DNA of 19,140 bases from a virus. Taxonomy: Duplodnaviria; Heunggongvirae; Uroviricota; Caudoviricetes. Positions 1 through 18,115 of the stretch are shown here, one piece after another. The DNA is taken from positions 1 to 19,140 of IMG/VR virus record IMGVR_UViG_2778261300_000006; one strand, written 5' to 3'. How positions within the stretch are numbered: position 1 is the first letter of the stretch; each line of letters opens with the position of its first letter. The position numbers and the translations under genes are program-made. Under the pieces are notes generated by a model, which was not told the DNA's origin, did no database searches, and saw nothing but the letters and a program-made list of their open reading frames with translations.

Positions 1-201
1 TTAGGTAACTTCTTTACCTATTGCAACCGATAGATCTCGCAAAATCCGATAAGTCAAACGACCGCGAGGTAGTTCACTTTTACCAGCCCAGCGACTGACT
101 GCCTGGGTGACTGTTCGTGGTTCATAGCCCGCGTTAAGCGCGAACTGGCGCAAGCTACTGCCTCGTTCAACCAGCCGTGCCCGAACTTGTTGTTTGTTCA
201 T
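1..201 (-). CDS. Ner/Cro-like small HTH DNA-binding regulator
   Basis: 66-aa ORF (ATG at 201; the track's 207 start is GTG). The segment SLRQFALNAGYEPRTVTQAVSRWAGKSE resembles the Mu Ner / Nlp family pattern (SLSALSRQFGYAPTTLANALERHWPKGE) from memory. It is divergent from the plus-strand regulator. The stop codon sits at the window edge (1..3). Confidence 0.55.
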   Translation of the reverse strand: MNKQQVRARLVERGSSLRQFALNAGYEPRTVTQAVSRWAGKSELPRGRLTYRILRDLSVAIGKEVT

Positions 202-289
202 ATGCACCGTGTTCCTGTTAGGTTATGATGTACTCTATTGGGTCTATTGTACACACCCAAATGAGTGTGTCAAATTGAGATATGTTCAA
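202..289. promoter_or_regulatory. Divergent intergenic control region between the Ner-like and XRE-like regulator genes
   Basis: 88-bp AT-rich spacer between two divergently oriented HTH genes. It contains a short inverted repeat, acacac-N9-gtgtgt (about 246..266). Promoters and operators are inferred from geometry only. Confidence 0.3.
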
Positions 290-697
290 ATGAGTACAAA
301 AGAGAGATTGCGTGAAGTGATGGATGCTAATGGCATGACAATAAAGGCATTATCTGACTTATCAAAAATTCCATATCGCTCACTTCAAAACTATTTGCGT
401 GGAGAGAGAGAACCAAACGCAGAGGCTCTTGTTGCGCTAAGTGCCCATTTGGGTGTATCGATCGATTGGCTACTTACCGGTAAAGAACATATTCCATCTA
501 AAGAAATTGTTGCTGTACCAACACAACATCAATTCAGCCCGTCAGACCTTAAAATGCTTGAACTTCTAAACCAGTTAGATCCTGAGGTTCGGCGAGATCT
601 CATGCGAGGCGCTGAAGAAAAACAGCGTGTGATTGAGATGGAAAAACAACTGAAGGAATTATCCGCAACGATTGAGCGGTTAAAAAATGTGGGTTAA
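290..697 (+). CDS. XRE-family HTH transcriptional regulator (repressor-like) with a C-terminal coiled-coil region
   Basis: ATG at 290 (MSTKERLREVMDANGMTIKALSDLSKIPYRSLQNYLRGEREP...) gives a classic XRE/Cro-CI-type helix-turn-helix. The C-terminus is charged and heptad-like (EEKQRVIEMEKQLKELSATIERLK). The track ORF starts at 194, but its N-terminal extension is unlikely to be translated. No S24 peptidase domain is present. Confidence 0.6.
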   Translation: MSTKERLREVMDANGMTIKALSDLSKIPYRSLQNYLRGEREPNAEALVALSAHLGVSIDWLLTGKEHIPSKEIVAVPTQHQFSPSDLKMLELLNQLDPEVRRDLMRGAEEKQRVIEMEKQLKELSATIERLKNVG

Positions 698-767
698 TGT
701 GTTCCTAACGAGAACATATAGCAGAAATTATTTGCCATTAAGCAATAAAAAATAAGGTGGATAGCCA

Positions 768-1775
768 ATGTCTGAGCAGACCATTGAAGTTAAACACGTT
801 GTAGTTCACATTTTAGACAAACAACAAAATGGAGACGCTTCTGAGAGATTGAGTCCTGAAGAAGGTCTAGTTACTGAAGCCTCTCAGCGCCTTATAAACG
901 ATATTTGTGCAAAATATGCAGGACGCACAGGTAAAGGTTATGGCTATTTTGAAGGCGATACGGATAACTATCCTATGGAACGAATGGCTGGGGACTTTCT
1001 CGAAGGTGTTGATGATTTCTACCAAAGTTCCTGCCGAATGATGCATCACCTGACGGAACGTTCTCAGCGAGAAAACATGGCTACTGGTGGTTATGTTCTT
1101 TTTGCAAATATCGTGATAGGACACAATGAACACCTGTTGATAGCTATTGTAAGCGCTACCATTGGGTCCACTGTCACAGATGATTTTAACATCCAAGATA
1201 GTACCTATCTTGATATTGCTAAGCTGCGTATGGCTGGGCGCATTGACTTAACCGCGTGGGAAAGTGGCGCAGAGCGCTATATCAGTTTTCTTAAGGGGCA
1301 AGGTAATGTTTCAAACTATTTTAAACAGTTCCTAGGCTGTAATGATGTCTTAATCGCCAAACGAGAGTCTGAAAAGTTACGTGACGTTTTAAAAGCATTT
1401 GCGGCAGAGAAAGGACTTGACGGCGCTGAAAAAGATGCATTTCTTAAGAGTGCGTTTGAACACTTACATGCACTAAGTAAGGCTGGTGAACCACTTAGTC
1501 TTGAAACCCTTGTTAATGCCATTTGGCCCCAGGCTCCCGAGGAGTTATCTGGTAAACTTGCTGCTGAAGAGTTGGAGTTATCGGATGGCTTCGTTCCTGA
1601 TGGTCGAGTCATTCGGGCTCTGGTATCTTTTAAAGGCAAGTCTAAATATTGGGAACTTAAGTTTGACCGGGAAGGGAAAACTGAAGGCTATATTGATTAT
1701 GATCCGGAAACAAATATTATCACCCTACGTAATGTACCTGAAGAATTTAGGGAAATGTGGATGACTGAGGTTTAA
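768..1775 (+). CDS. NdpA/YejK-like (nucleoid-associated-protein-like) soluble protein; cargo gene A
   Basis: ATG at 768 with RBS AAGGTGG 7 nt upstream. 335 aa. Recalled NdpA-family landmarks: N-terminal I-x-V-K-HVVVHILDK, KGYGYF, and GGYVLFANIV...HLLIAIV. AT-rich relative to the tail genes. This is a recall-based assignment, not a search result. Confidence 0.5.
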   Translation: MSEQTIEVKHVVVHILDKQQNGDASERLSPEEGLVTEASQRLINDICAKYAGRTGKGYGYFEGDTDNYPMERMAGDFLEGVDDFYQSSCRMMHHLTERSQRENMATGGYVLFANIVIGHNEHLLIAIVSATIGSTVTDDFNIQDSTYLDIAKLRMAGRIDLTAWESGAERYISFLKGQGNVSNYFKQFLGCNDVLIAKRESEKLRDVLKAFAAEKGLDGAEKDAFLKSAFEHLHALSKAGEPLSLETLVNAIWPQAPEELSGKLAAEELELSDGFVPDGRVIRALVSFKGKSKYWELKFDREGKTEGYIDYDPETNIITLRNVPEEFREMWMTEV

Positions 1776-1777
1776 TC

Positions 1778-2983
1778 GTGGCGATTTCATTTGAGATGCT
1801 GACAGCTCTGTATCGTCGTATGGAATTCCAAGAGGGGTTTCGTGTCGGTTCGCTGTTGCTCTTAGATCAGTCCGATTGTGATCTGGTTGATACTTTGCTT
1901 GATGATCCTCGTGAATATGGTCTTTCTATTGATACAGGCACTATCGCTCCAGGTAACACGATCATCCTACGTGTGACGTCACCACGGAGTGGACTGGGAC
2001 TTGTGTTTTCCACCCATGAAAAATTGCTAAATGCTCCAAAGCATCAGTGCCTTGAGCCAGCTAATTACTTCATCCTAGAAACAAAATTTCGTAATGATGA
2101 TGAAGATATCCCCGTTTTCATCAGCAACTACCGGAAGATTCTCGAGTTCGTTAACCTGCTAAAAGAGGCCGCGGCCTACTTTGATAACTCAACTTGTCAG
2201 TTAGTTTTTCTGAAAAAAGAAGTTATCAAGCTATTACCGCACTTCGCTGCAGAAAATGTACAAAATTTGCAAAGGGAGTATCTTGATAACCTTATAGCTT
2301 GTTTCAATGATGATACCCATAAGGATCAGAAGCTAGATATTCTGATTGAAAGTATTCAAGCAGTTAGTGATGGAATTGATTCACCTCTAGTATTCGCTTA
2401 TTTACTGGACAATATTCAGCGTCTGCATGAAAAGTTTCTGAAAGGGTATCGTATCTACTCTTCTGGATTCTCTTATGACAAAGTAATGGATCAACTGCGT
2501 GCTGCAAAAGTCGAAGAAATGGGTAAAATCCACAAAGCGTTTTCAGATATCCAGAACCATATACTTGGCATTCCTGTTGCCTCTGTTATCGTAGCTACCC
2601 AATTCAAAGTGGCTACGAAATGGTCAGGCCAAGGGATAACAAACACAATAATTCTTCTGGGATGCATTTTTGCTGCAACGTTAATCTGGCTGGCACTTTC
2701 GAACCAGATGCAATCTATAAAGGCCTTAGGCGAAGAAATTGAATACAAAGAAAAACAGATTAATAAGGAATATTCCTTCATTAAAGATGACGTGGCTGGT
2801 GTATTTAGCAGTATTTCTGCGCGACTAGACACGCAGAAACGTACGTTCTGGATTATACGTGGTGTTCTAGTTATGGGAATTATTACCGCTATCACTGTTT
2901 ATTTTTGGTACACAAAACCAGCCCTTGACTTCATGCAGTACTTGATTCACTGCATGAAGTCTTACTATTCGGTCAAAAGTTGA
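1778..2983 (+). CDS. Membrane protein with a large N-terminal soluble domain and two C-terminal TM helices; cargo gene B
   Basis: GTG at 1778 with GAGG 7 nt upstream, 2 nt after the stop of gene A (operon coupling). Hydrophobic segments ITNTIILLGCIFAATLIWLAL and TFWIIRGVLVMGIITAITVYFWY are separated by a charged helical linker. No recognisable enzymatic motif. Confidence 0.55.
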   Translation: MAISFEMLTALYRRMEFQEGFRVGSLLLLDQSDCDLVDTLLDDPREYGLSIDTGTIAPGNTIILRVTSPRSGLGLVFSTHEKLLNAPKHQCLEPANYFILETKFRNDDEDIPVFISNYRKILEFVNLLKEAAAYFDNSTCQLVFLKKEVIKLLPHFAAENVQNLQREYLDNLIACFNDDTHKDQKLDILIESIQAVSDGIDSPLVFAYLLDNIQRLHEKFLKGYRIYSSGFSYDKVMDQLRAAKVEEMGKIHKAFSDIQNHILGIPVASVIVATQFKVATKWSGQGITNTIILLGCIFAATLIWLALSNQMQSIKALGEEIEYKEKQINKEYSFIKDDVAGVFSSISARLDTQKRTFWIIRGVLVMGIITAITVYFWYTKPALDFMQYLIHCMKSYYSVKS

Positions 2984-3743
2984 GGATAATGAGTTCCTTC
3001 TTGCGACTGGATTTGCCAGTGATCTTGAGGTTGTAGCTGATATCAACCGACTGAATATTTAGACCGTTGAATGCCTGCCGCATTTCCGGGATATCGTTCA
3101 CCGATATAATCATCTTCCCTTTGATCCTGCGTGCTAAATCTGCCATATGATCATAATTTTCTAGTCCGAACTCCACACCATAACCTTCCGTTCCCCAGTA
3201 TGGAGGGTCACAGTAGAACAACGTATGCGGGCGATCATATCGTTCTATGCACTGTTGCCAGTCCATGTGTTCTATGACCGTTCTGGAAAGCCGCAGGTGT
3301 GCCGCTGACAGTTCTTCTTCAATACGCAGCAGGTTGAAGCGTGGCGGGGATATGGTGGAGGTACCAAAGCTGTGCTCCGCCACCTTGCCCCCAAACGCCT
3401 GCTTCTGAAGGTAATAGAACCGTGCTGCACGCTGGATATCCGTCAGTGTTTCTTCCGGGGTGATCTGCAGCCATTTGTAGATCTGCCGGCTGACCAGCGC
3501 CCATTTGAACTGGCGTACAAATTCTTCCAGATGATGTTTTACCACCCGATACAGGTTCACCAGCTCACCGTTGATATCATTAATGACTTCGATCTTGCCG
3601 GGTACCTTAAGAAAATAGAGCGCTGCTGCCCCACAAAACGGCTCCACATAACATTCATGCGCCGGAAACAGCGGCAGGATGTGTTTTGCAAGGCGGCGTT
3701 TGCCACCAATCCATGGAACGATGGGTAATGTCTGCATTTTCAT
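2973..3743 (-). CDS. dam: DNA adenine methyltransferase (Dam-like, D12-class N6-adenine MTase)
   Basis: 256 aa. N-terminal AdoMet-binding motif (EPFCGAAALYF), catalytic DPPY motif (FYCDPPYWG) and WIGGKRRL near the N-terminus. The 3' end overlaps the 3' end of cargo gene B by 11 bp (convergent). Confidence 0.85.
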   Translation of the reverse strand: MKMQTLPIVPWIGGKRRLAKHILPLFPAHECYVEPFCGAAALYFLKVPGKIEVINDINGELVNLYRVVKHHLEEFVRQFKWALVSRQIYKWLQITPEETLTDIQRAARFYYLQKQAFGGKVAEHSFGTSTISPPRFNLLRIEEELSAAHLRLSRTVIEHMDWQQCIERYDRPHTLFYCDPPYWGTEGYGVEFGLENYDHMADLARRIKGKMIISVNDIPEMRQAFNGLNIQSVDISYNLKITGKSSRKKELIILNF

Positions 3744-3990
3744 AATCTGTAAGCCTTTTACAATTATAAAAAATATGGCAGGCTAGTCTGGTCTCGCGAG
3801 ACTGACTGAACCTTGGTCGGCTCACAGCGCATTCCTGTGGGGCGATGGCCAGCCCGGTGTTCGGGTACCGGGCTGGTCGTTCTTTCAAAGCCATCATGCA
3901 GTGCACGTTTACATCTTCACTATTAACGCTGTTTAAAATCCGTATCCCGCCACATTTGTGATGCTGTCTCCACCAAACGAGGAGACACAC

Positions 3991-4341
3991 ATGAAAAACC
4001 TGAAAAAATTCATTCCCCCTGTTAAAAAACCTCGCCTCAGCGGCTGGCTGCTGACCTCAGTGCTGCTGCTGGGCACCATCGCTCTGGTCTCGCCACAGCA
4101 GTTGCCTGTTGTGATCTACAAGCTGGCACTCATCACGCTGGCAGCAGTGCTGGGTTACTGGCTTGACCGTTCGCTCTTCCCCAAAGCCCGTCCCGGTCAG
4201 TACCTGAAACATGACGACAGACTGATGGCTGAAGGGCGTTTCCCTGTGCAGACCGGCCTTCACCTTGTATTTTCTGCTGCGTTAATCCGCCGTGCACTGA
4301 TTGTTGCAGCGGTCTGTCTGGCTGTGGCAACAGGACTGTGA
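3991..4341 (+). CDS. Holin-like small membrane protein (2-3 predicted TM segments)
   Basis: ATG at 3991 with RBS GAGGAG at 3979..3984. 116 aa with hydrophobic stretches WLLTSVLLLGTIALV, VVIYKLALITLAAVLGYWL and ALIRRALIVAAVCLAVATGL. Stop overlaps the start region of the downstream lysis gene. Confidence 0.5.
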   Translation: MKNLKKFIPPVKKPRLSGWLLTSVLLLGTIALVSPQQLPVVIYKLALITLAAVLGYWLDRSLFPKARPGQYLKHDDRLMAEGRFPVQTGLHLVFSAALIRRALIVAAVCLAVATGL

Positions 4342-4343
4342 CC

Positions 4344-4886
4344 ATGAACTGGCCTCAAATCACCCTCATTATTCTGTTCGCCTTTGGTCTGGGCGTAACC
4401 GCCATCAGGCACGGAGAACCACGTAACGATAAATACAGCTTCTGGTGGCAGCTTGCTGGCAACCTGGTGATTGTCTGGCTGCTCTGGTGTGGCGGCTTCT
4501 TCAGTCAGGCCCGCGCAGCGCAGCCTCCGCAGGCTGCGCTGCAGTATCGCGATGATGTGATCCGTAATGCCCGGCTTGAATGGGGACTGTCTGCGCCGGT
4601 GGCCGATTTCGCCGCGCAACTGCATCAGGAAAGCGGCTGGCGACCTGATGCGGTCTCGCCGGCTGGCGCTCAGGGACTGGCGCAGTTCATGCCTGCCACT
4701 GCCGACTGGATAAGCCAGTTGATACCGATGCTGAGCAGTCGTGAGCCGTTTAATCCTGCATGGGCTATCCGGGCGCTGGTCAGCTATGACCGCTGGCTGT
4801 GGCAGCGCGTAAGCGCCGCCAACGACTGCGAGCGTATGGCCATGACACTGTCGGGCTATAACGGTGGTCTACACCCTGCGCCGTAA
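4344..4886 (+). CDS. Signal-anchored lytic transglycosylase (endolysin-like, SLT domain), apparently truncated or frameshifted
   Basis: N-terminal hydrophobic segment (WPQITLIILFAFGLGVTAI) followed by the family-1 SLT signature ...HQESGWRPDAVSPAGAQGLAQFMPATADWI... and YNGG. The ORF stops right after the YNGG motif; see the 4891..5016 feature. Confidence 0.6.
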   Translation: MNWPQITLIILFAFGLGVTAIRHGEPRNDKYSFWWQLAGNLVIVWLLWCGGFFSQARAAQPPQAALQYRDDVIRNARLEWGLSAPVADFAAQLHQESGWRPDAVSPAGAQGLAQFMPATADWISQLIPMLSSREPFNPAWAIRALVSYDRWLWQRVSAANDCERMAMTLSGYNGGLHPAP

Positions 4887-4890
4887 GGGG

Positions 4891-5016
4891 ATGCCTGTTG
4901 CCGACAAGTACGACGGAGCCGGCGGCAAGGTGAAGTACTGCCGTTATACCGATATCTACAAAGTCGCCGTGGTTGGTGGCGATGCCGGGTATCTCATTAC
5001 CGGTATCAGTAAATAA
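4891..5016 (+). pseudogene. +1-frame continuation of the transglycosylase gene (frameshifted 3' portion or separate 41-aa ORF)
   Basis: The +1 frame reads ...YTLRRKGMPVADKYDGAGGKVKYCRYTDIYKVAVVGGDAGYLITGISK and ends at 5016, exactly where the RBS (AAGGAGG) of the next gene begins. The frame switch would lie near the ggtggt run around 4862..4870. Confidence 0.4.
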
Positions 5017-5025
5017 GGAGGCGTT

Positions 5026-5364
5026 ATGGGAACCACTCAGCAGGTCATTCTGATCACAACCGTAACGGCAGGGGCCGCACTGGCACAGCAGCGTTTTGTC
5101 GGGGCAGATAATACCCCCTGTAAAGCCGGTGCCGCAGCGCTCGGGGTTGCCGAAGTGGATGCTGTTACCGGCGACAGCACGCCGGTGAGCGTTCTGGGCA
5201 TTATTGCTGTCGAGGCCGGGGCCGCTGTCAGCCGTGGTGTGGCTGTTCAGTCAGATGCTCAGGCCAGAGCCGTGCCGCAGTCCGGCGACGGTAAATCCTG
5301 TGGTATTGCACTTGATGAAGCCGGGGGTGAAGGCGACGTCATTCGTATCCTGCGCGGGGTGTGA
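5026..5364 (+). CDS. Ala/Gly-rich small structural protein (possibly Mu gp35-like, DUF2190-type)
   Basis: ATG at 5026 with perfect RBS AAGGAGG. 112 aa. Its position immediately upstream of a DUF1320-like gene matches Mu late-operon order. The family call is from memory and weak. Confidence 0.45.
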   Translation: MGTTQQVILITTVTAGAALAQQRFVGADNTPCKAGAAALGVAEVDAVTGDSTPVSVLGIIAVEAGAAVSRGVAVQSDAQARAVPQSGDGKSCGIALDEAGGEGDVIRILRGV

Positions 5365-5365
5365 C

Positions 5366-5812
5366 ATGTACTGCACCCTGGAGGATTTGCTTGCGCAGGT
5401 GCCGGAACGAACGCTGATCGAGCTCACCAGTGAAGAGATGGACTTCGACTCGCCTGCAACAGTGAATACCCGTGTGGTGGACAGCTGTATCCGCTATGCC
5501 GACGAGCTGATTGATGCCCATCTGCGCGGACGCTATATCCTGCCACTGGCAGAGATACCGACTGTTCTGCGGGACATTGCCATCACGCTGGTCCGTTACC
5601 GGCTCTACGCCCGCCGCCCGGAAGGTGACCTCCCGGATACGGTGAAGGATGACCACAAAGAAGCGCTGCGGCAACTCAGGGAGTTACGTGATAACAGGCT
5701 CACGCTGGGGCTGCCGTCCACTCAGAAAGATGTGCCTGAGCCTGGCGAGTTTCGTGTACGCAGCCGCCCGGCCACTTTCGGCGGTCGTGACGGTTTACTG
5801 GAGAAATACTGA
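5366..5812 (+). CDS. Mu gp36-like protein (DUF1320 family; head-tail joining or tail completion)
   Basis: MYCTLEDLL...RYILPLAEIPTVLRDIAITLVRYRLYARRP...HKEALRQLRELRDNRLTLGL matches the recalled DUF1320 pattern (RY.LPL...P.VL..A.D.A.YRLY.RR...YK.A...L..I..G...LG). Start is 2 nt after the upstream stop. Confidence 0.65.
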   Translation: MYCTLEDLLAQVPERTLIELTSEEMDFDSPATVNTRVVDSCIRYADELIDAHLRGRYILPLAEIPTVLRDIAITLVRYRLYARRPEGDLPDTVKDDHKEALRQLRELRDNRLTLGLPSTQKDVPEPGEFRVRSRPATFGGRDGLLEKY

Positions 5813-6276
5813 TGAACGTTCTGCCCGTCCTTGATGCGGTACTGGCCCGGTTACGCGAGAAGCTGCCGCAACTGCAGGTGGAGTACTTCCCGGAGAAACC
5901 GGCTGAATATCGCCTGAACCATCCGGTTGGCGCGTTGCTGCTGAGCTATGCCGGTTCGCGCTTTGACAGGCCGGATGATACCGGTGCGGTGATCCAGTCT
6001 CAGACTATCCAGCTCTGCGTCACGGTGGTCTTCCGCCAGCTCAACGGTAAAAAAGGGGCGATTAATGTCCTGGATGCTGTCCGCCGCATTCTCGGCGGCC
6101 ACACCCCGCCCGGCTGCCGCCGCCGTATCTGGCTGACCCGCGAGGTGTTTATCGGTGAAGTCAGGGGGCTGTGGCAATACGCCCTCGACTTCGCGACTGA
6201 AAGCGTCTTTATCGAAGACAGCGATTTACCGTCCGGCCCGCTGTTAACCGAAGTGAACTATGAGGAAAGCGAGTGA
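5812..6276 (+). CDS. Mu gp37-like virion morphogenesis / tail completion protein (tentative)
   Basis: ATG overlaps the upstream stop (TGATG) and GGAG lies 8 nt upstream. 154 aa. Assignment is by position between the gp36-like gene and the sheath gene in Mu-like order. Confidence 0.45.
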   Translation: MNVLPVLDAVLARLREKLPQLQVEYFPEKPAEYRLNHPVGALLLSYAGSRFDRPDDTGAVIQSQTIQLCVTVVFRQLNGKKGAINVLDAVRRILGGHTPPGCRRRIWLTREVFIGEVRGLWQYALDFATESVFIEDSDLPSGPLLTEVNYEESE

Positions 6277-6527
6277 TGAAAGAATACCGCTATTCCGGCC
6301 CGGCCAGCGGCGTCACGCTGTCGGACGGAACCGAAATCCTGCTCTGGCCGGGGAAGACGGTTTCCCTGCCGGAGGAGCATGAATACGTGAAGGTACTGGT
6401 GGCGCTGAAGCATCTGACGCCGGTACCAGAAGATACTAAACCCGCCGTCACACCGGCTGTGCAGTCACCAAAGCGCAGAAGCAGCAGTGACAGCGAAGTG
6501 AAAACGGAGGACTCCCATGGCAGCTAA
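6276..6527 (+). CDS. Small protein with a disordered, charged C-terminus (Mu gp38-like position)
   Basis: ATG at 6276 overlaps the upstream TGA. 83 aa. The 3' end overlaps the sheath gene start by 11 nt. Confidence 0.4.
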   Translation: MKEYRYSGPASGVTLSDGTEILLWPGKTVSLPEEHEYVKVLVALKHLTPVPEDTKPAVTPAVQSPKRRSSSDSEVKTEDSHGS

Positions 6528-7944
6528 CTATCTGCATGGCGTCGAAACCATTGAGGTGGAAAACGGAGCCCGCCCGGTTAAAACGGTGAAATCTGCCGTT
6601 ATTGGCCTGATTGGTACCGCCCCGATGGGGGATGTCAATACGCTGGTACAGTGCCTGTCTGAGAAAGACGCTGCGGCATTTGGCAGCCAGTTCACCGGCT
6701 TTACCATTCCGCAGGCGCTGGATGCGATTTATGACCATGGTGCAGGCACCGTTCTGGTCATTAACGTACTCGATCCGTCTGTGCATAAAACCGCTGTGGT
6801 CAGTGAGAATGTGTCGTTCGACAAGGCGACAGGCAGAGCCCGGCTGGCTAATCCGGTGGTCGCGCAGCTGGTACTGAAACCGGACAGCGACGGTCAGCCT
6901 TATGTTGAAGGTCAGGACTACTCGCTTGATGCACAGACCGGGGTGATTACTAACCTGGGTAAAAGCATTGCTGCAGATGCAACGGTGAAGGCCAGCTATA
7001 ACTATGCTGATCCGACCAAAGTCACCCCGGCTGATATCATCGGTACCGTTAACGCTGCAGGCAACCGTACCGGCATGAAGCTGCTTAACGACAGTTTTAA
7101 CCTGTTTGGCTACTTCGCCAAAATCCTGATTGCTCCGGTATTCTGCACCCAGAACAGCGTCTCGGTTGAGCTTATCGCCATGGCTGAGAAACTGGGAGCA
7201 GTAACCTATATTGATGCGCCGGTTGGTACCACTTTTGCGCAGGCTCTGGCGGGACGTGGCCCGGAAGGCACCATTAACTTTAATACCAGCTCTGACCGTG
7301 TCCGCCTGTGCTACCCGCATGTGAAGGTATATGACCCGGTGACGAACACGGAGCGTCTGGAGCCACTGAGCCAGCGTGCGGCGGGCCTGCGTGCCAAAGT
7401 CGACCTGGACAAAGGGTACTGGTGGTCATCCTCCAATCAGGAAATTCTGGGGATCACCGGCGTGGAGCGCCAGCTGTCGGCAATGATTGACGATCCGCAG
7501 AGCGAGGTGAACCTGCTTAACGAACAGGGGATCACCACGGTATTCAGCAGTTACGGCAGCGGCCTTCGTCTGTGGGGTAACCGGACGGCAGCATGGCCAA
7601 CGGTCACCCATATGCGTAACTTTGAGAACGTTCGCCGCACCGGTGATGTGATCAACGAGTCCATTCGTTACTTCAGCCAGCAGTACATCGACATGCCGAT
7701 TACTCAGGCGCTGATTGATGCACTGACGGAGTCGGTCAACGCCTACGGTCGCAAAATGACTGGTGATGGTGCGGTACTGGGCTTCCGTTGCTGGTTTGAT
7801 CCGGCCCGCAATCCGGAGACGGAGCTGGCCGCCGGGCACCTGTTGCTGAGCTACAAATATACGCCACCACCGCCGCTGGAGCGACTGACGTTTGAGACTG
7901 AAATCACCTCGGAATACCTGTTAACCCTGAAAGGGGGCAACTGA
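6517..7944 (+). CDS. Contractile tail sheath protein
   Basis: 475 aa with RBS GGAGG 6 nt upstream. Size and position are right for a myovirus sheath, and it is followed immediately by a tube-sized gene. Sequence is reminiscent of Mu L / P2 FI-type sheath proteins. Confidence 0.85.
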   Translation: MAANYLHGVETIEVENGARPVKTVKSAVIGLIGTAPMGDVNTLVQCLSEKDAAAFGSQFTGFTIPQALDAIYDHGAGTVLVINVLDPSVHKTAVVSENVSFDKATGRARLANPVVAQLVLKPDSDGQPYVEGQDYSLDAQTGVITNLGKSIAADATVKASYNYADPTKVTPADIIGTVNAAGNRTGMKLLNDSFNLFGYFAKILIAPVFCTQNSVSVELIAMAEKLGAVTYIDAPVGTTFAQALAGRGPEGTINFNTSSDRVRLCYPHVKVYDPVTNTERLEPLSQRAAGLRAKVDLDKGYWWSSSNQEILGITGVERQLSAMIDDPQSEVNLLNEQGITTVFSSYGSGLRLWGNRTAAWPTVTHMRNFENVRRTGDVINESIRYFSQQYIDMPITQALIDALTESVNAYGRKMTGDGAVLGFRCWFDPARNPETELAAGHLLLSYKYTPPPPLERLTFETEITSEYLLTLKGGN

Positions 7945-8465
7945 TGTCAAAGATTGAGATAAACCGAATCACGAATGCCAACATCTATCTGGATGGTACT
8001 AACCTGCTGGGACGGGCTGAGGAAGTTAAACTCCCCGATGTCTCCATGATTATGCAGGAGCACAAGGCACTGGGGATGGTGGGTAAGGTGGAACTCCCGG
8101 CTGGTTTTGACAAACTGGAAGGCGAAATCAAATGGAACAGCTTTTACCGCGATGCGATGTTGTCTGCCGCGAACCCGTACAAGTCGCTGGCGCTGCAGTG
8201 TCGCTCCAGCGTCCAGCGCTACAGCTCGCAGGGGCTGATCGACGAAATCCCGCTGGTCACCTTCCTGACAATTATGTTCAAGAAGAACCCGCTGGGGACG
8301 TTCAAACAGCACGAGAACGCCGAGTTCTCCAGTAGCTTCACCTGCACGTATATCAGACAGGTACTGGATGGTGAAGAGTTGCTGCAACTGGACTATCTGG
8401 CCAACATCTTCCGCGTCGGTGGCGTTGATCAACTGACTGACTATCGAATCAATATCGGGGGCTGA
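7944..8465 (+). CDS. Tail tube protein
   Basis: 173 aa. ATG overlaps the sheath stop (TGATG) and RBS AAGGGGG lies upstream. Canonical position after the sheath. Confidence 0.8.
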   Translation: MSKIEINRITNANIYLDGTNLLGRAEEVKLPDVSMIMQEHKALGMVGKVELPAGFDKLEGEIKWNSFYRDAMLSAANPYKSLALQCRSSVQRYSSQGLIDEIPLVTFLTIMFKKNPLGTFKQHENAEFSSSFTCTYIRQVLDGEELLQLDYLANIFRVGGVDQLTDYRINIGG

Positions 8466-8467
8466 CG

Positions 8468-8749
8468 GTGAGTGTTGAACTGACTGACAAAGGAGGGCGA
8501 TGTGCGTCACTGGGCATGTCAAATGGTACGTGGTTTACCCTCCTTGATATTCCGGGGGTGGAGACCCTCTTTAATACCCGTAAAACCAATGACCCGATTG
8601 ACTGCACACGTTCAAAGGCCCGCAAACTGGCCGATTTGATTGAAGCATGGGAGCCGCCCGACCAGTGGTTCTCCGGCACCGGCAACTCTGAGGGAAAGGC
8701 GCTTCTCATCGCTTTCCTGCGTAACTGCAAGGGTTTTCGCACTTGCTGA
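8468..8749 (+). CDS. Hypothetical small protein between tube and chaperone genes
   Basis: 93-aa ORF with GTG start at 8468 (alternative in-frame ATG at 8516). No recognisable family. Followed directly by a terminator-like hairpin. Confidence 0.3.
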   Translation: MSVELTDKGGRCASLGMSNGTWFTLLDIPGVETLFNTRKTNDPIDCTRSKARKLADLIEAWEPPDQWFSGTGNSEGKALLIAFLRNCKGFRTC

Positions 8750-8756
8750 CATCACA

Positions 8757-8778
8757 GGGGCTCCGGCCCCTTCTTTTT
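8757..8778 (+). terminator. Rho-independent terminator-like hairpin inside the tail operon
   Basis: GGGGC-tccg-GCCCC stem-loop (8757..8770) followed by TTCTTTTT (8771..8778). Confidence 0.45.
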
Positions 8779-8846
8779 AATCCCCTTTAATATCCGTCAC
8801 GTCCACCGCCAGACATACTGCTCTGAATTTACAAAGGAGTATGATC

Positions 8847-9182
8847 ATGTCACAGACCCAGTCCGATACTTTTACGCTGTCTTATCCTTTCACCACTGCT
8901 GCAGGTACCAGAATTGAACAGATTGAACTGAAACGCCTGACAGTAAAAGACCTGAAGCAGGTGCGCAAAATCAACAAAGACCCGACAGACTGGGACGAAC
9001 CACTGATTGCCCGTAGCACCGGTATCCTCCCGGAAGACCTCGATAACATGGATCTTGCCGACTATATGGAGCTGCAGAAACGATTTCAGAAAATCACTGG
9101 GCTGGGCAAGAGCGACAAAAACACTGATGCAGGTGCAGGGCCTGCTGGCGAGATGGTTCAGGTTTCAACCGGGGGAGATTGA
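8847..9182 (+). CDS. Tail assembly chaperone (P2 gpE / lambda gpG-type), upstream frame
   Basis: ATG at 8847 with AAGGAG 7 nt upstream (the 8841 ATG is too close to the RBS). Small acidic protein directly upstream of the tape measure gene, with an overlapping out-of-frame ORF, the hallmark of the conserved chaperone frameshift pair. Confidence 0.65.
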   Translation: MSQTQSDTFTLSYPFTTAAGTRIEQIELKRLTVKDLKQVRKINKDPTDWDEPLIARSTGILPEDLDNMDLADYMELQKRFQKITGLGKSDKNTDAGAGPAGEMVQVSTGGD

Positions 9183-9264
9183 TGCCCTCGATACTGACGA
9201 TCTGGAGATGTGGCTGGAGCAGGCTGAAGAGCAAATCAAAAGCGAGTTCGGCGACAATCAGTAA
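9007..9264 (+). CDS. Frameshift extension of the tail assembly chaperone (E'-like C-terminal extension)
   Basis: ORF in the +1 frame relative to 8847..9182, overlapping its 3' end. It encodes an acidic helical tail (...IDALDTDDLEMWLEQAEEQIKSEFGDNQ). It has no plausible independent start (TTG in the track). Only the 3' part (roughly 9170..9264) would be translated after the shift. Confidence 0.45.
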   Translation: MPVAPVSSRKTSITWILPTIWSCRNDFRKSLGWARATKTLMQVQGLLARWFRFQPGEIDALDTDDLEMWLEQAEEQIKSEFGDNQ

Positions 9265-9357
9265 CAACGTATCACTTAACAGCCGCCAGTCGCGGCTGTT
9301 CTGCATGGGTTTCAGACACTTCCCTTCCGTTTTTTTTGCTTTCAGAGGATAGCCACC

Positions 9358-11823
9358 GTGGCCAGTGAATTTTCAGTCGGCGTCATTATTGGCGGCATTG
9401 TCGGGAGCAGCTTCCGCTCAGCCGTCAGTGGCACCCGACGCGCCCTTGATTCCCTTGGTGATACCTCCCGCCGTCTGCAGGAACGCCAGAATGCCTTAAC
9501 CCGGGCAACAGAACGTTATGGTCAACTGGGTTCTTCCCGGATGCAGCATCTCAACAGCGAGTTGCTGCGGGTAAGCCGCACCATGGAGCAAATTGAACGT
9601 CAGCAGCGCCGTCTGTCAGCAGTATCAGCCACCGGTGATGCGTTGAAGGCTAACCGCCTGGCGCTCTATGGTCAGGGTGCAGAAACCTATGCTATTGGCA
9701 GAACGCTGGGCGCACCGGTCATGGCCTCGGTTAAACAATATGCCTCGTTTGAATCACAGTTGCGGGATATCAGTGTCACAGGAGACCTGGATGCAAAACA
9801 GGAACGTGCAATTGGCCAGGCTATCAGACAGGCCTCGCTGAAGGTTAACCAACTGCAGGAGTCTCTGTTAGGGGGAGTCGGACAATTAGTTGCTGATGGT
9901 ATGGCCCCCGAACGGGCAGCAACGTTTGCAGAGATGCTTGGAAAGACCGCTACAGCAACCAAAGCCGATATGACCGACCTTGCCAAAATGACTTATGCCT
10001 TCAGCGATGCACTCAGAATCACTGATGCGAAAGAACTTGAACAGGCGTTTGGTATTGCGGCAACAGGAGCCAAACTTGGGTCATTTGAGCTGAAGGATAT
10101 GGCAAAAGCATTACCCGGTATGGCTAAAGCCTTCGCTGCTCGTGGTATTTATGGAAAAGATGCGATTACCCAGATTGTTGCCAGTCTGGAGGTCGGTAAA
10201 GGTAGTGGCTCTGCAGAGGAAGCGGTCACCAATATGTCCAACTGGCTGGCAGCAATGGGCCGCGGAGATACCATCCAGAAATATGCTAAAGCCGGGGTGG
10301 ATTACCAGGGGTCAATGCAGAATTACGTCGCTCAGGGTTTTTCGCAGTACGAAGCTTCACTGATGATTGCCAACCGTTTTATCGACAGTAAAGGCAAAGC
10401 GTTCTTGCAGCAATGGAAAGCTGCAGGAGCAAGAGGCGATCAGGAAGGTCAGCAGAAACTCATGGAGTCATTTGGTCTGGCTGAGGTCTTTACCGATATT
10501 CAGACTGTCAACCATTTACTGTCAATGCGACAGGGCTGGGATAAATACCTTTCCAGTAAGCAGGAAATGAATACTCCGGCTGCAATGTCTACCCTGGATA
10601 AGGATGCTGCAAAGCAGAATGATACGCTTGAAGGTCGCTGGCGCAGAATGCAGATCGGCTTTAATGATTCTGCTATCAGCATCGGGCAATCCTTGCGTCC
10701 GGCTTTGCTCCAGTTGGGTGAAACATTTATTCCTTTAATGGACAGTGTTGGCAAATGGATAGCGGCAAATCCGCAGCTCGTCAGCAGCACCATAAAGGTT
10801 GTGGGCGCATTACTCGCTTTCAGGATGGCCACTATCGGTCTCAAGCTTGGGCTGAATCTCCTTCTTTCCCCCTTTGTAAGCGTCTGGAAAAATGCTGTTT
10901 TACTTCGGGCCAACTGGCTTCGTCTGACGCTCGCACTGGGGGAAGGCGGTAAACTCCGCTGGCTGGTGACAGGCTTTGGTGCTGTCGCCAGAGGAGCCAG
11001 AACACTGGGTGGTGTGCTCTCAGGGGGGCTGGTTCGCGGAATTATGAGCGCCGGGCGTGCCGTTCTCTGGATTGGCCGGGCGCTGCTGATGAATCCCATC
11101 GGTCTCGTTATCACCGCCGTCGCGGCAGCAGCTTACCTTATCTACCGCAACTGGGGCGCAGTCAGTAGCTGGTTTAAACAGCGCTGGGCTGACATTCAGG
11201 AAGCCTTTAACGGCGGCATCGTGGGAATTGGTAAACTGCTGGTTAACTGGTCTCCGGCTGGTCTGCTTTATAAAGCCTTTGCGGCTGCGCTGAAATATCT
11301 CGGCGTTGATCTGCCGGCGAAATTCACCGACTTCGGTGGTCATCTTATTGACGGGTTGATAAATGGCATCAGAAACAAATGGGCGTCACTCAAAACCAGC
11401 GTAACCGGAATGGGTGACAGCATCAGTGACTGGTTCAGCGAAAAGCTGGGCATCCATTCACCGAGTCGCGTGTTTATGGGCTTTGGTGACAATATCGCGC
11501 AGGGTGCCGCCATTGGCCTGCAACGGACCACTCCGCTTGCTGCACTGGCCGGGCAGCGCCTGGCCGCTGAAATGACACCGGATGTTCCCCGTATCCCGTC
11601 GCCGGAAATCATGGCTGCCGGATATTCAGGCCGTGGCGCAACTGCAACCGGCGGTGGAGCGTCTGGCGGTATCCAGGTCAGCTTTAATCCTCAGTTTTTC
11701 CTCAATGGTAAGGAAACCGCAGCGCCTGCCGGGCTGGCTGGTGCCCTGAATATGAGCCTGCATGAGCTGGAAAAAATGCTGGAGCGTCTGCTGGCTCAGA
11801 AACAACGTAAGGAGTACAGCTGA
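9358..11823 (+). CDS. Tail tape measure protein
   Basis: 821 aa. GTG start with AGAGGA 8 nt upstream. Long helical N-terminal region, Gly/Ala-rich hydrophobic central segments and overall architecture typical of tape measure proteins. Confidence 0.85.
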   Translation: MASEFSVGVIIGGIVGSSFRSAVSGTRRALDSLGDTSRRLQERQNALTRATERYGQLGSSRMQHLNSELLRVSRTMEQIERQQRRLSAVSATGDALKANRLALYGQGAETYAIGRTLGAPVMASVKQYASFESQLRDISVTGDLDAKQERAIGQAIRQASLKVNQLQESLLGGVGQLVADGMAPERAATFAEMLGKTATATKADMTDLAKMTYAFSDALRITDAKELEQAFGIAATGAKLGSFELKDMAKALPGMAKAFAARGIYGKDAITQIVASLEVGKGSGSAEEAVTNMSNWLAAMGRGDTIQKYAKAGVDYQGSMQNYVAQGFSQYEASLMIANRFIDSKGKAFLQQWKAAGARGDQEGQQKLMESFGLAEVFTDIQTVNHLLSMRQGWDKYLSSKQEMNTPAAMSTLDKDAAKQNDTLEGRWRRMQIGFNDSAISIGQSLRPALLQLGETFIPLMDSVGKWIAANPQLVSSTIKVVGALLAFRMATIGLKLGLNLLLSPFVSVWKNAVLLRANWLRLTLALGEGGKLRWLVTGFGAVARGARTLGGVLSGGLVRGIMSAGRAVLWIGRALLMNPIGLVITAVAAAAYLIYRNWGAVSSWFKQRWADIQEAFNGGIVGIGKLLVNWSPAGLLYKAFAAALKYLGVDLPAKFTDFGGHLIDGLINGIRNKWASLKTSVTGMGDSISDWFSEKLGIHSPSRVFMGFGDNIAQGAAIGLQRTTPLAALAGQRLAAEMTPDVPRIPSPEIMAAGYSGRGATATGGGASGGIQVSFNPQFFLNGKETAAPAGLAGALNMSLHELEKMLERLLAQKQRKEYS

Positions 11824-12707
11824 TGTTTGCCGTACTGGGTGATATTGAGTTTGAACTGATTACCTACTGGGACGGCTTCGAGGCCACGTTTGGCGTCGAT
11901 TATGCGGAGCATGCCCGCATCGAGGGTAAACCCGGCCTGCAGTTTGTCGGCGACAGGCTGGACGAAATCCAGATAAGCCTGGTCTTCCATCAGCATTATT
12001 GTGTGCCCGACGTGGAGCTGGCGAGAGTGCGAACAGCCATGAAGGCCCATCAGGCACTGGCGCTGGTCTTCGGCAACGGTGACTATCGCGGCTGGTTCGT
12101 GATTACCGATGTGACCGCAACCAGCGAGCAGACAGACAGCACCGGTAACGTGCTGGCTGTCAGTGCCACCGTGTCTCTCCGGGAATACACCGGTGACCCG
12201 AAAAATCCTCTGCAACCGCCGGCAATACGCAGGCAGGTTCCCGGTGCCGGAGCTGTATCGGGTGCTGTTCCATCGCCTTCCGGGGTGGCGCAGTTCGTCC
12301 GTAACGGCGTCAACTATGCGAAACAGGCGCAGTCTGTACTCCAGACCACTATCAGTGCCGTTCGGGTGGCGCAGAAAATGAAGGGTAACCCCGTTGTCGC
12401 GCTGACCCGTGTGCCTGGACTGATGAGCGGACTGGGTAATATATCCGGAGCTCTGGGGAAAAGTGTTCCGGCGTTTAATGCACTCTCTGAATCCATGCCC
12501 GATGCCATCAGTCTGGCCAGAACAGCCAGTGAGGCAGCCACGTATGTACAGCAGGCGCAGTCGGCGCTGAGTGGTGTGGACAAAAGAAATATTGCAGGTG
12601 CTCTGGATACCGTTTCCGGGCAGCTTAACGCCGCCGGCACAGCATTCAACCGCATGTCTCCGGGATTAAGTGCAATGGCCGCCAGAATACTGACGAGGAG
12701 TGTGTGA
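11823..12707 (+). CDS. P2 gpU-like tail protein (DNA-circulation-type N-terminal domain)
   Basis: ATG overlaps the tape-measure stop, with AAGGAG 8 nt upstream. N-terminus MFAVLGDIEFELI resembles gpU-family starts. Position is after the tape measure. Confidence 0.55.
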   Translation: MFAVLGDIEFELITYWDGFEATFGVDYAEHARIEGKPGLQFVGDRLDEIQISLVFHQHYCVPDVELARVRTAMKAHQALALVFGNGDYRGWFVITDVTATSEQTDSTGNVLAVSATVSLREYTGDPKNPLQPPAIRRQVPGAGAVSGAVPSPSGVAQFVRNGVNYAKQAQSVLQTTISAVRVAQKMKGNPVVALTRVPGLMSGLGNISGALGKSVPAFNALSESMPDAISLARTASEAATYVQQAQSALSGVDKRNIAGALDTVSGQLNAAGTAFNRMSPGLSAMAARILTRSV

Positions 12708-12919
12708 TGTTTCTTGAACATATTACCCGTGACGGAGAGCGCTGGGATTCGCTGGCATGGCAGTACTACGGTGACCCGCTGGGCTATCCCCGGATTATTG
12801 CAGCCAATCCGCACGTGGCCATTACGCCGGTGCTGCCCTCCGGGGTGTTGTTACTGATCCCGGTTATTGAGGCTGAAGATGCCCGCACAGAAGAGGATGT
12901 TGCTCCATGGCTGAGATAA
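12707..12919 (+). CDS. Tail protein X-like (P2 gpX family)
   Basis: 70 aa. ATG overlaps the upstream stop, with GAGGAG 6 nt upstream. Pattern W..LAWQYYGDPLGY..IIAANP......LP.G..L.IP resembles the gpX / LysM-like family. Confidence 0.6.
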   Translation: MFLEHITRDGERWDSLAWQYYGDPLGYPRIIAANPHVAITPVLPSGVLLLIPVIEAEDARTEEDVAPWLR

Positions 12920-14061
12920 ACAGTACTGCGCAAGACGTATCAGCGTTAACCGGCGTCAGCGATGTGCTGACGCCGGTGTTCACTCTGTGGTATCTGCAGA
13001 AAAATATCACCTCTGATATCGCGCCTTATGTCACCCGTGTGACCTGGAGCGATAACATCAAAAATGAGTCCGATACCATTGAGGTGGAGCTGGATGACAC
13101 CGATGGTCGCTGGCTGGATAAGTGGTATCCGGGCAAGGGTGACACGCTGACGCTGAAAATGGGTTATCAGGGCGAGAAACTGCTGTCCTGCGGTACATTC
13201 TCAATAGACGAGATCGAAGTGAGTTCGCCCGCGTCCGTTGTCGCTATCCGTGGGGTGGCCACCTCGGTTAACAGTGCTCTGCGGACTAAATCCAGCCGTG
13301 GTTTTGAGAACACCACGCTGGCAGCTGTTGCGGGGCGGATTGCCAGAAAGCACCGACTGAAACTGGTGGGCAGCATTGAGTCCATCAAAATCGACCGGGT
13401 GACCCAGTATGCTGAAACCGACGTGGGTTTTCTGCGCCGGCTGGCCAGCGAGTATGGTTATGCAGTGAAAGTGGTCAGTGACCAGTTGATTTTTTCTCAT
13501 CTGGCCACACTGCGCAGTCAGGAGCCGGTCAGGCAGTTAAAACCGCAGGATGTGGCCCGCTTTTCCCTGCGTGACACCATCAACCGGGTCTATAAATCTG
13601 CAAAGGTAAAACACCAGAAAAGCAGCAGTAAAAAACTGATCGTCTACGAAGCTGATGGTGGTACCCGTGAAAGCGACAAAAAGCTCAAAGGTGGTAAGGT
13701 TACCAGCGCTGACTCACTTAAAGTTAACAGCCGTGTCAGCGACCCGGACAGTGCCCGGATTAAAGCGGATTCAGCACTGGCCAGACATAACGAATACCAG
13801 CAGAACGGCTCCCTGACGCTGACGGGAACGCCTCAACTGACAGCAGGCAACAAAATTGAACTGGTGGGCTTTGGACAGTTATCCGGTCCATGGCTGATAA
13901 TCACTGCCCGCCATGCGTTTGAGCGTAACAGCGGCTACACCACAGAGCTGGAAGTGGCACGGGGGCCAGTCACAAGAGGGAAAAAACAAAAAACTCAGAA
14001 ACTCACGGTTTATCACCCGGATGGCAGTACATCGACGGTGATTAAGGAGAAGAAAAAATGA
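12907..14061 (+). CDS. P2 gpD-like / Mu P-like tail protein (baseplate hub-type)
   Basis: 384 aa. Position between the gpX-like and spike genes. Lys-rich C-terminus. 3' end overlaps the next start (ATGA). Confidence 0.65.
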   Translation: MAEINSTAQDVSALTGVSDVLTPVFTLWYLQKNITSDIAPYVTRVTWSDNIKNESDTIEVELDDTDGRWLDKWYPGKGDTLTLKMGYQGEKLLSCGTFSIDEIEVSSPASVVAIRGVATSVNSALRTKSSRGFENTTLAAVAGRIARKHRLKLVGSIESIKIDRVTQYAETDVGFLRRLASEYGYAVKVVSDQLIFSHLATLRSQEPVRQLKPQDVARFSLRDTINRVYKSAKVKHQKSSSKKLIVYEADGGTRESDKKLKGGKVTSADSLKVNSRVSDPDSARIKADSALARHNEYQQNGSLTLTGTPQLTAGNKIELVGFGQLSGPWLIITARHAFERNSGYTTELEVARGPVTRGKKQKTQKLTVYHPDGSTSTVIKEKKK

Positions 14062-14585
14062 CTGGTGTCACCCGTCAGGTCGGTACGGTCAGTGCCGTTG
14101 ATGCCGACAGGGTTCAGGCCCGCGTTCGTCTGCCTGAATGCGATAATCTGCGCACAAACTGGCTTAACGTGCTACAGCGCAATACCCAGGATAACAAGGA
14201 TTACTGGCTCCCTGACGTGGGGGAGCAGGTTGAGGTGCTGCTCGATGCCAACGGCGAGGATGGTGTTATTCTGGGCGCGGTGTACTCAGACGTCGATAAA
14301 CCGCCGTTCAGTGATAAAAACGTCCGGGGTACGAAATACGCTGATGGCGCGGAGTTCAGTTATAACCGCGCGACCCATACGCTGACGGTCAGAGGAGGTA
14401 TTGAGCGTATCGTGGTGGAGGTTGCCGCTGATATCTCTCTCAAAGGGAAAAAACTCGACCTCACGGGAGTTACCACGATCAACGGCCCCGCGACACTCAA
14501 TGGTGATCTGGAAATCAACGGAAGCGCCCATGCAACGGGTAACATATTTGCTGATGGTCAGAACTCTAATCACCATTCCCATTGA
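14058..14585 (+). CDS. Baseplate central spike protein (gpV-like)
   Basis: 175 aa with AAGGAG RBS. gpV-like N-terminal OB-fold region. His-rich C-terminal apex (...GQNSNHHSH). Confidence 0.75.
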   Translation: MTGVTRQVGTVSAVDADRVQARVRLPECDNLRTNWLNVLQRNTQDNKDYWLPDVGEQVEVLLDANGEDGVILGAVYSDVDKPPFSDKNVRGTKYADGAEFSYNRATHTLTVRGGIERIVVEVAADISLKGKKLDLTGVTTINGPATLNGDLEINGSAHATGNIFADGQNSNHHSH

Positions 14586-14641
14586 ACCTTCTTAAACGCC
14601 TTTAATATCGGCGCTTACTTCCCGGGGGCAATACTGCCTCC

Positions 14642-14989
14642 ATGAAAACGACCTCAGTATTCTGGCAACCAGCTCTGCAGGCTCCCGGCGAAATCGTCCG
14701 GGGGCTGGATGATATCCGGCAGTCCATCCAGATCATCCTGCGGACTCCCCGCGGCAGCGACCCGCATCGCCCGGAGTTCGGCAGCAATCTGCACCTTTAT
14801 ATCGACTGGCCTGTCGGCCGGGCCATTCCGCATGTGGTTCGCGAATCCGTCGATGCCATCAGGCGCTGGGAACCCCGCTGCCAGCTTATGTCGGTTAAAC
14901 CCGCCGTCGACGGCGAACATCTTACGCTCCGGGTGAGCTGGAAAGGCTCAGACGGACAACCCCGTACTCAGGAACTGCTATGGCGCTGA
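14642..14989 (+). CDS. Baseplate wedge protein (gpW / gp25-like)
   Basis: 115 aa. Pattern ...IRQSIQIILRTPRGSDPHRPEFGSNLHLYIDWP... is typical of the GPW_gp25 family. 3' end overlaps the J-like start. Confidence 0.75.
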   Translation: MKTTSVFWQPALQAPGEIVRGLDDIRQSIQIILRTPRGSDPHRPEFGSNLHLYIDWPVGRAIPHVVRESVDAIRRWEPRCQLMSVKPAVDGEHLTLRVSWKGSDGQPRTQELLWR

Positions 14990-16083: not shown

Positions 16084-16654
16084 GGTGCTACAACTCCCGC
16101 CACCGCTTGAGGGTGATATCAGTCTCAGAACGCTGGGAAGACTGGCCGGACGGCTGGATAACATCGACCTGAGCGTACTGATGGTCGGTCTCGTCGATAT
16201 TGTCGACAGTTCCGCGCTGCCATGGCTTGGCGAGCAGTTCTCGCTGTTCGGCGATGGCTGGGAACTGGCGGAATCGGACGATGTACGCCGCATGCTTATC
16301 AAATCCGCTATCGAGCTACACCGCTATAAAGGAACACCGTGGTCAATCCGGGAAATTATCCGCCGTTTTGGCTTCGGCGAAGTGGATCTGATTGAAGGTA
16401 CGGGGCAGATTGGCTATGACGGCAGACACACGTACAACGGGCTTTTCGTCCATGGTGATGCACAAGCCTGGGCAGTCTATCGCGTCATCTTTCAACAACC
16501 CATCACTAACGATCAGGCGGCGCTGTTACGTCAGACGCTTGCTGCCTTTGCTCCGGCTCGCTGTCATCTGGCAAGTCTGGAATATCAGTCTGTCGCCATT
16601 CGATACAACAGTACTACCTGTTATGACGGTAGTTACAACCACGGGAGCAGTTAA
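16076..16654 (+). CDS. Baseplate/tail protein (P2 gpI-like, Mu gp48-like)
   Basis: 192 aa. ATG overlaps the J stop. Immediately upstream of the tail fiber gene. Confidence 0.7.
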   Translation: MAKVLQLPPPLEGDISLRTLGRLAGRLDNIDLSVLMVGLVDIVDSSALPWLGEQFSLFGDGWELAESDDVRRMLIKSAIELHRYKGTPWSIREIIRRFGFGEVDLIEGTGQIGYDGRHTYNGLFVHGDAQAWAVYRVIFQQPITNDQAALLRQTLAAFAPARCHLASLEYQSVAIRYNSTTCYDGSYNHGSS

Positions 16655-16656
16655 TT

Positions 16657-17622: not shown

Positions 17623-17641
17623 AAACGTTGGTTTGGGGGAA
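17616..17641. other. Putative crossover site B (direct orientation relative to site A)
   Basis: agcatagaaacg-tt-ggtttgggggaa: right half identical to site A, left half diverged and overlapping the stop codon of cassette 1. Confidence 0.4.
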
Positions 17642-18109: not shown

Positions 18110-18115
18110 TTATAT

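Follow-up and report, generated by a model that had tools for sequence, protein, structure and literature searches.

Is the AT-rich block at the left end of a tailed-phage sequence foreign cargo, or does it belong to the phage that carries it? The question is raised by IMG/VR record IMGVR_UViG_2778261300_000006, of which positions 1 to 19,140 were analysed (this whole stretch of 19,140 nucleotides is referred to as the window, and coordinates are those of the window unless another prophage is named). A first-pass annotation had described positions 194-2990, which hold a regulator gene and two further genes (here genes A and B), as an AT-rich compositional island and had read all of it as a horizontally acquired moron. 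We consider it likely, from sequence comparison and from analogy with recently published systems, that the block is the ‘immunity plus cargo’ region of a Mu-like prophage of Escherichia coli, in which a cI-type repressor is followed by an acquired two-gene anti-phage cassette encoding a nucleoid-associated protein (NAP) and a membrane effector. The cargo would then probably be a module of the type II PANGU or DS-1 kind, of a different subfamily, within a family that was itself described in 2026.

The compositional island is real. The G+C fraction (GC) of 194..2990 was 0.411, as against 0.543 in the remainder to its right (2991..19140) and 0.518 to its left (1..193). In sliding windows GC stayed at 0.38-0.45 over 250..3000, afterwards climbing to 0.50-0.62. 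A maximum-likelihood fit with two boundaries placed the island at 185..3165, and a single change point fitted best at 3163, raising the log-likelihood by 83 nats. Windows of equal length (2,797 bp) taken elsewhere had a mean GC of 0.550 (standard deviation 0.019, lowest value 0.498), leaving the island about 7 standard deviations lower, and with 500-bp windows the ranges did not overlap (minimum outside the island 0.452, maximum inside it 0.446). The island is therefore far beyond chance. Of the boundaries first proposed, the left one was off by no more than ∼10 bases; gene B, on the right, stops at 2983, and the low GC extends as far as ∼3165 since dam, which converges on gene B, is AT-rich at its 3' end too.

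The shift in composition was strongest at third codon (synonymous) positions. GC at third codon positions (GC3) was 0.331, 0.345 and 0.391 in the three island genes, compared with 0.54-0.72 in the genes from holin to baseplate and 0.57 in dam, which bears out the earlier remark that the lysis and tail genes are GC-richer. Relative synonymous codon usage (RSCU) of the island genes was essentially uncorrelated with that of the late phage genes, the early phage genes or the flanking host tor/cbp genes (r = 0.07-0.14); among themselves these three sets were closely correlated (r = 0.86-0.94). The local host flank has a GC of 0.53 against 0.41 for the island, and the E. coli genome as a whole is at ∼0.51. 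Sliding-window GC and codon-usage analysis, the check proposed with the first-pass annotation, thus returned a clear step, although the compositional signal itself is textbook, the ordinary signature of a moron.

Which part of the island is cargo was decided by comparison with related prophages: those of E. coli MS20655 (L001), CFSAN051542 (L002) and AR_0067 (L003), a Yersinia prophage (L010) and a related Mu-like phage (L011). Using sensitive blastn, homology to the CFSAN051542 prophage stopped at 717/718 and restarted at 2992, and homology to the AR_0067 prophage stopped at 716/717 and restarted at 3052; the alignments of most relatives started only at 3032 or 3079. The slot between the repressor gene and dam is occupied in these prophages by other genes, namely an unrelated 175-aa open reading frame (ORF) in L002 (6535..7062), unrelated ORFs of 297 aa and 114 aa in L003 (6276..7566) and a different 233-aa ORF in L011 (2125..2826), all of them AT-rich (GC 0.41-0.42). 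The L002 and L003 ORFs had no Pfam and no PADLOC match, and the L011 ORF is without a recorded Pfam family. Between dam and the holin gene lies a second slot, which the window leaves empty and which is filled by a DUF2441 gene in L002, by three ORFs in L003 and, in L011, by a cassette of an NA37 gene (the family of gene A) with a transmembrane (TM) protein gene. Across the alternative cargo ORFs of the sister prophages L002 and L003 there was no PADLOC match, and Pfam gave DUF2441 only; the alternative occupants may be uncharacterised genes for defence or for another benefit to the lysogen.

The TM cassette of L011 is a copy of genes A and B with 78% identity (aligned to 731..2939, where the alignment ends and the C-terminus of gene B differs), and the Yersinia prophage carries the cassette at 84% identity in the same slot as the window. 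Its presence in a different slot of L011, together with the Yersinia copy, marks the cassette as a mobile unit independent of the repressor. Within E. coli, the segment spanning both genes (698..2990) was found in 19 of 5,426 complete genomes, always as a single chromosomal copy, and the dam-holin-SLT backbone matched 636 of the same genomes (∼12%). The pair also occurs in other surroundings: flanked by the genes for the Q antiterminator and the holin in Morganella lambdoid prophages, between Q and the lysis genes of a Salmonella lambdoid prophage, and near an Mrr-type nuclease in a Paraburkholderia island. In all six distinct loci examined, the gene B homologue directly follows an NA37 gene. 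The GC of the cassette was 0.35-0.38 in Morganella and Salmonella, with flanks of 0.44-0.51 (the 0.44 being the AT-richer early side in Morganella), and 0.45 in L010 and L011, with flanks of 0.53-0.59; on the lysis or structural side, the flanks of these enteric loci spanned 0.48-0.59. In Paraburkholderia it was 0.567, equal to its flanks. This is the pattern expected of a low-GC module that slowly adopts the composition of its resident genome.

The regulator behaves differently. A repressor gene was present at the same position in every relative examined, in the form of diverged alleles that are all AT-rich (GC 0.43-0.45). An allele of ∼80% identity occurs in ∼20 genomes, where such alleles accompany other cargo. 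In AR_0067 only the C-terminal half of the gene aligned (451..716, 78% identity), the DNA-binding half (239..450) giving no alignment, which suggests, at the level of sequence, that immunity specificity is swapped by recombination inside the repressor gene. The repressor is a core phage gene with mosaic alleles and not cargo. Given the homology breaks, the turnover of the slot and the presence of a repressor in all relatives, the island resolves into a core mosaic immunity gene and a true cargo segment (Table 1). The description of the block as a horizontally acquired moron consequently stands for genes A and B, which give way to unrelated ORFs in most sister prophages, whose RSCU is foreign and which recur as a pair in unrelated prophages, and falls for the regulator, which is the phage's own.

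Table 1. Features at the left end of the window.
Feature	Position	Strand	Details
Small helix-turn-helix protein (Ner/Cro-like)	1..207	-	Weak Pfam match to HTH_35; phrog_8503 1e-31
Divergent regulatory region, early operon and repressor gene	208..289		Consensus matches only
cI-type immunity repressor, 135 aa	290..697	+	Pfam HTH_3 2e-12, Phage_CI_repr 1.7e-6; PHROG repressor families
Swapped-in cargo segment (moron proper)	718..2991		∼2.27 kb, GC ∼0.41; blastn breaks
Gene A, YejK/NdpA-like nucleoid-associated protein, 335 aa	768..1775	+	Pfam NA37 1e-80
Gene B, predicted membrane protein, 401 aa	1778..2983	+	GTG start, 2 nt past gene A stop
D12-class DNA adenine methylase (dam)	2973..3743	-	Pfam MethyltransfD12 7e-28; GC 0.493
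Second cargo slot, between dam and holin	3887..3918		Homology break; empty in window
Holin, then SLT gene	from 3988/3991 onward		

Low GC could instead be an intrinsic, selected trait of the immunity regions of temperate phages, serving for example H-NS binding, promoter melting or low expression, in which case the island would carry no information on acquisition. The core repressor gene is indeed as AT-rich (GC 0.417) as the cargo, all repressor alleles and every alternative occupant of the slot are AT-rich too, and phage lambda likewise combines an AT-rich immunity region with a GC-rich structural arm. As an account of the whole block we nevertheless regard this as unlikely, given that the comparisons independently show 718..2991 to be gained or replaced and to move between slots, and that the cassette is AT-rich in unrelated phages yet at the GC of its host in Paraburkholderia. 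The two readings are compatible, and for the repressor gene the intrinsic one is probably the better.

What the cargo does was approached through its two proteins. The NA37 domain of gene A covers residues 12-327 of 335, so that the protein is full length and equal in length to the host YejK, and it matched YejK in the PDB (9be2, 6.8e-30) and phrog_3767 (7e-117). Gene B belongs to phrog_5023 (2e-142), a family of unknown function, and has 166 homologues, mainly in Enterobacterales, that are all labelled ‘hypothetical’ or ‘phage-related membrane protein’. Residues 1-260 of its product have an isoelectric point of 5.0 and a net charge of -11, and are followed by hydrophobic segments at 262-280, 285-311 and 356-378; an AlphaFold model based on 38 homologues (mean predicted local distance difference test score, pLDDT, 81) consists of an alpha/beta N-terminal domain and long helices over 213-400. 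No Pfam family and no PDB relative was found for gene B by sequence or by family profile, and neither PDB nor BFVD contained a significant structural counterpart of its predicted fold. Nothing was found in the literature under the RefSeq accessions of either gene.

Both proteins are related to an experimentally validated anti-phage pair. DS-1 (‘D390’), an E. coli system reported with DefensePredictor, consists of a NAP of 391 aa (WP_000355468.1) and a 404-aa partner (WP_000150292.1) and, among the phages tested, which included BASEL phages, reduces plating of Bas1 by 7.6 logs and of Bas26 by 2.7 logs (Science 2026, PMC13092281). By BLASTP, gene A shared 23% identity with the DS-1 NAP (E 8e-9, shuffle z 15.5), and gene B shared 23% identity over 302 aa with its partner (E 6e-10, shuffle z 11.8-14.1). 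Composition-preserving shuffles gave z 10-15, a range that also covers the soluble N-terminal part of gene B taken alone, and none of 300 shuffles attained the real score.

The arrangement also recalls PANGU, a group of NAP-centred two-gene defence operons in which the genes are separated by less than 40 bp (Li et al., bioRxiv 10.64898/2026.04.06.716658). In type II PANGU a YejK-like Pag2A is paired with Pag2B, a protein that binds the NAP through an acidic N-terminal ‘DNA-mimic’ (DMK) domain and carries a TM domain at its C-terminus; both genes of the E. coli representative (PANGU-Ecu) are required against T4, and protection is by abortive infection (10.64898/2026.04.06.716658). Mutants of T4 in denA (EndoII) evade this E. 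coli system, and its Pag2A leaves the nucleoid upon infection (10.64898/2026.04.06.716658). By these comparisons gene A is a putative Pag2A-like sensor and gene B a putative Pag2B-like membrane effector. If the mechanism can be taken over from the published relatives, the gene A protein would sit on the host nucleoid and be freed when an infecting phage degrades the host DNA; it would then bind the acidic N-terminal domain of the gene B protein, and the effector, once activated, would abort the infection. The low GC would reflect a foreign origin, with the cassette circulating, AT-rich throughout, among the cargo slots of Enterobacterales prophages.

How the cassette is expressed is suggested by its position. 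The DNA specific to the cassette starts just 37-50 bp before the start codon of gene A, and a simple consensus scan found no terminator-like site between the repressor gene and gene A or flanking the cassette. With so little upstream DNA of its own and no terminator-like site, the cassette is probably transcribed together with the repressor in lysogens. We infer that read-through from the repressor promoter is the most economical reading, paralleling lambda, in which cI is followed on the same strand, in the AT-rich part of the genome, by rexA and rexB, a two-gene exclusion module made up of a soluble sensor and a membrane effector. Such co-transcription would favour expression in the lysogen over silencing. 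The AT-richness of the block (0.41) is consistent with xenogeneic DNA silenced by H-NS, and is the sole datum of that kind. A hairpin at ∼697-720, past the repressor stop codon, was tried as a terminator and rejected, folding no better than shuffled sequence (z = 0.24).

Several observations count against an anti-phage cassette of this kind. The identity to the validated DS-1 proteins is just 23%, and gene A, unlike the DS-1 NAP, has no N-terminal zinc ribbon and no CxxC pairs at its N-terminus, the NA37 domain starting at residue 12 in gene A and at residue 42 in the DS-1 NAP; the absence of the zinc ribbon places the cassette in a different subfamily of the DS-1 kind. Gene A was unrecognised by PADLOC 2023, its only Pfam family being NA37. 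The acidity of the N-terminal domain in gene B is no more than moderate, and neither PDB nor BFVD matched its predicted fold, so that it is at most a putative ‘DNA mimic’. The likeness to type II PANGU is one of described architecture rather than of sequence compared with Pag2A and Pag2B, and the activation of Pag2B is itself stated to be an open matter by its authors (10.64898/2026.04.06.716658). Finally, there is no strong promoter-like site before gene A, the sole weaker candidate (9/12 matches, 633-662) lying inside the repressor gene, and if H-NS does silence the region the cassette may stay unexpressed.

Other readings were weighed for the pair. It could be a repressor-wired, lysogeny-coupled exclusion module resembling cI-rexAB, hopping across dam between the two slots, with a membrane domain related to KwaA; the TM region of gene B did give a PADLOC match to KwaA, a weak one (E 8e-5) that recurred in only 3 of the 38 gene B homologues, and we hold this combination to be quite improbable. 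If true, kinship with KwaA would join two families of defence systems that each consist of a membrane protein and a DNA-binding protein, and would suggest a shared membrane-effector mechanism.

We think it very unlikely that gene A is a ‘stealth’ or housekeeping NAP that manages the chromatin of the element or its host, with gene B an unrelated membrane protein and no defence involved. The full-length NA37 protein of YejK size would suit such a role, as would its silence in PADLOC, and reviews amply document NAP genes carried by mobile elements; Pnd of pCAR1 is one of the plasmid-borne proteins, H-NS-like or NdpA-like, that manage chromatin and transcription. The constant order of the two genes in all six loci, across phage types and a non-phage island, with only 2 nt between them in the window, speaks against this reading, as does the homology of both proteins to DS-1, and PANGU defence requires both genes (10.64898/2026.04.06.716658). 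It is this obligate pairing with gene B, along with the validated relatives, that makes a chromatin-managing NAP unlikely.

A superinfection-exclusion or lysis-timing module serving the prophage's own cycle, for instance by coupling nucleoid disruption in the course of replicative transposition to membrane permeabilisation, would account for the proximity of the cassette to lysis genes in most phage contexts (between Q and holin, between dam and holin, or between repressor and dam-holin) and for the long helices of the gene B membrane protein, but is most improbable because the cassette is dispensable, being absent from most sister prophages, which keep holin and SLT, and occurs outside prophages near a restriction nuclease; its relatives, moreover, expressed by themselves from plasmids, protect against heterologous phages.

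The putative anti-phage cassette sits behind a repressor whose own control region can be outlined. The HTH_3/Phage_CI_repr domain is N-terminal in the repressor (GC3 of the gene 0.331). A strong, near-consensus promoter-like site on the minus strand (273..246, TTGACA-16-TACAAT, 11/12 matches) faces the early operon. The 9-nt direct repeat CAAATGAGT is present at 258-266 and at 287-295, the second copy spanning the repressor start codon; the two repeats are possible operators, put forward as candidates from their sequence and position.

The source element is a transposable Mu-like E. coli prophage with an early arm that is inverted relative to Mu, a layout resembling that of BcepMu. The window is 99.96% identical over 4..4870 to the prophage of E. 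coli MS20655. To the left of the corresponding region this prophage has a leftward operon that runs from small helix-turn-helix genes through DUF3102, a DDE transposase, an ExeA-family (MuB-like) protein and Gam to Mor, and to the right it has holin, SLT transglycosylase, terminase, portal, head and Mu-type contractile tail genes. The island is framed by conserved backbone genes on both sides. On the left, the Ner/Cro-like gene (GC 0.507), which is likewise annotated in L001 and L002, opens the leftward early (transposase) operon; on the right, dam is convergent with gene B and overlaps it by 11 nt (2973..2983). A scan of the entire window against Rfam gave no RNA family, and the titles and abstracts of the top 10 of 18 papers on BcepMu-like E. 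coli prophages and defence contained nothing on cargo slots.

Bases 1..3 of the window read TTA, compared with GGG in MS20655, and all relatives align only from base 4 or 5. As read, TTA forms a stop codon, and the Ner-like ORF is 8 codons shorter than the annotated 74-aa protein; this could be an oddity of the window edge or of assembly, or another rearrangement breakpoint. At 4869/4870 the window lacks 8.5 kb relative to MS20655 (L001 24868..33380), a gap that takes in the 3' part of the SLT gene along with the genes for the lipoprotein, small membrane proteins, terminase, portal, head morphogenesis and capsid. A 2-bp (CT) microhomology marks the junction, which leaves SLT truncated to 182 aa and was found in none of the collection of complete E. 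coli genomes. The gap and its absence from complete genomes point either to an assembly artefact or to a head-less defective prophage that keeps just its lysis and tail genes.

At the opposite end of the window, 17245-17367 and 19018-19140 form 123-nt inverted repeats (90% complementary) that enclose opposed genes for a tail-fibre C-terminus and assembly proteins (17633..18109 on the plus strand; 18116..18733 and 18733..19131 on the minus strand). On the sequence evidence, 17245..19140 bears the signature of a Gin/Cin-type invertible host-range segment, and parts of it resemble tail-fibre genes of unrelated coliphages. The tail fibre region (17000..19140) also shows a second, far milder dip in GC, to 0.486.

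These results allow a gene pair annotated as ‘nucleoid-associated protein’ and ‘hypothetical protein’ to be read as a probable anti-phage system; at least 19 complete genomes of E. coli carry it. The carriers include E. coli M-17, for which the listed source is the medicine BIOFLOR. Furthermore, two cargo slots, one between repressor and dam and one between dam and holin, are now defined in a common E. coli prophage family, and the other AT-rich ORFs found in both are reasonable candidates for new defence genes.

Among known systems, type II PANGU is similar in having an NA37/YejK gene followed on the same strand, here after a 2-nt gap, by its partner, with gene order and protein sizes that fit the published description. 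The partner proteins are alike in having an acidic N-terminal domain followed by TM helices towards the C-terminus, and type II PANGU occurs in E. coli too. The present cassette differs from those of the preprint, which does not mention prophages in its main text (10.64898/2026.04.06.716658), in lying inside a Mu-like prophage, directly behind the repressor.

Kiwa (KwaA and KwaB) similarly pairs a membrane protein with a DNA-binding partner, but the cassette has no DUF4868/KwaB-like domain, gene A being NA37, and the gene order is reversed. Kiwa was rejected as an identification, the KwaA match being weak and confined to those three homologues, with no PDB sequence match for the family profile and no Foldseek match.

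The lambda cI-rexAB region, with an accessory gene pair directly downstream of the repressor, served as the working analogy for both expression and action; the Rex proteins are not NA37 proteins, and no sequence relationship was found or is claimed. Lastly, the cassette resembles the morons described by Hendrix in that it is found at one position in some close phages and is absent from others, has a composition unlike that of its neighbours and probably benefits the lysogen. It may depart from the classic moron in that simple consensus scans detected no promoter or terminator of its own, and it looks instead to be wired into the transcription unit of the repressor.

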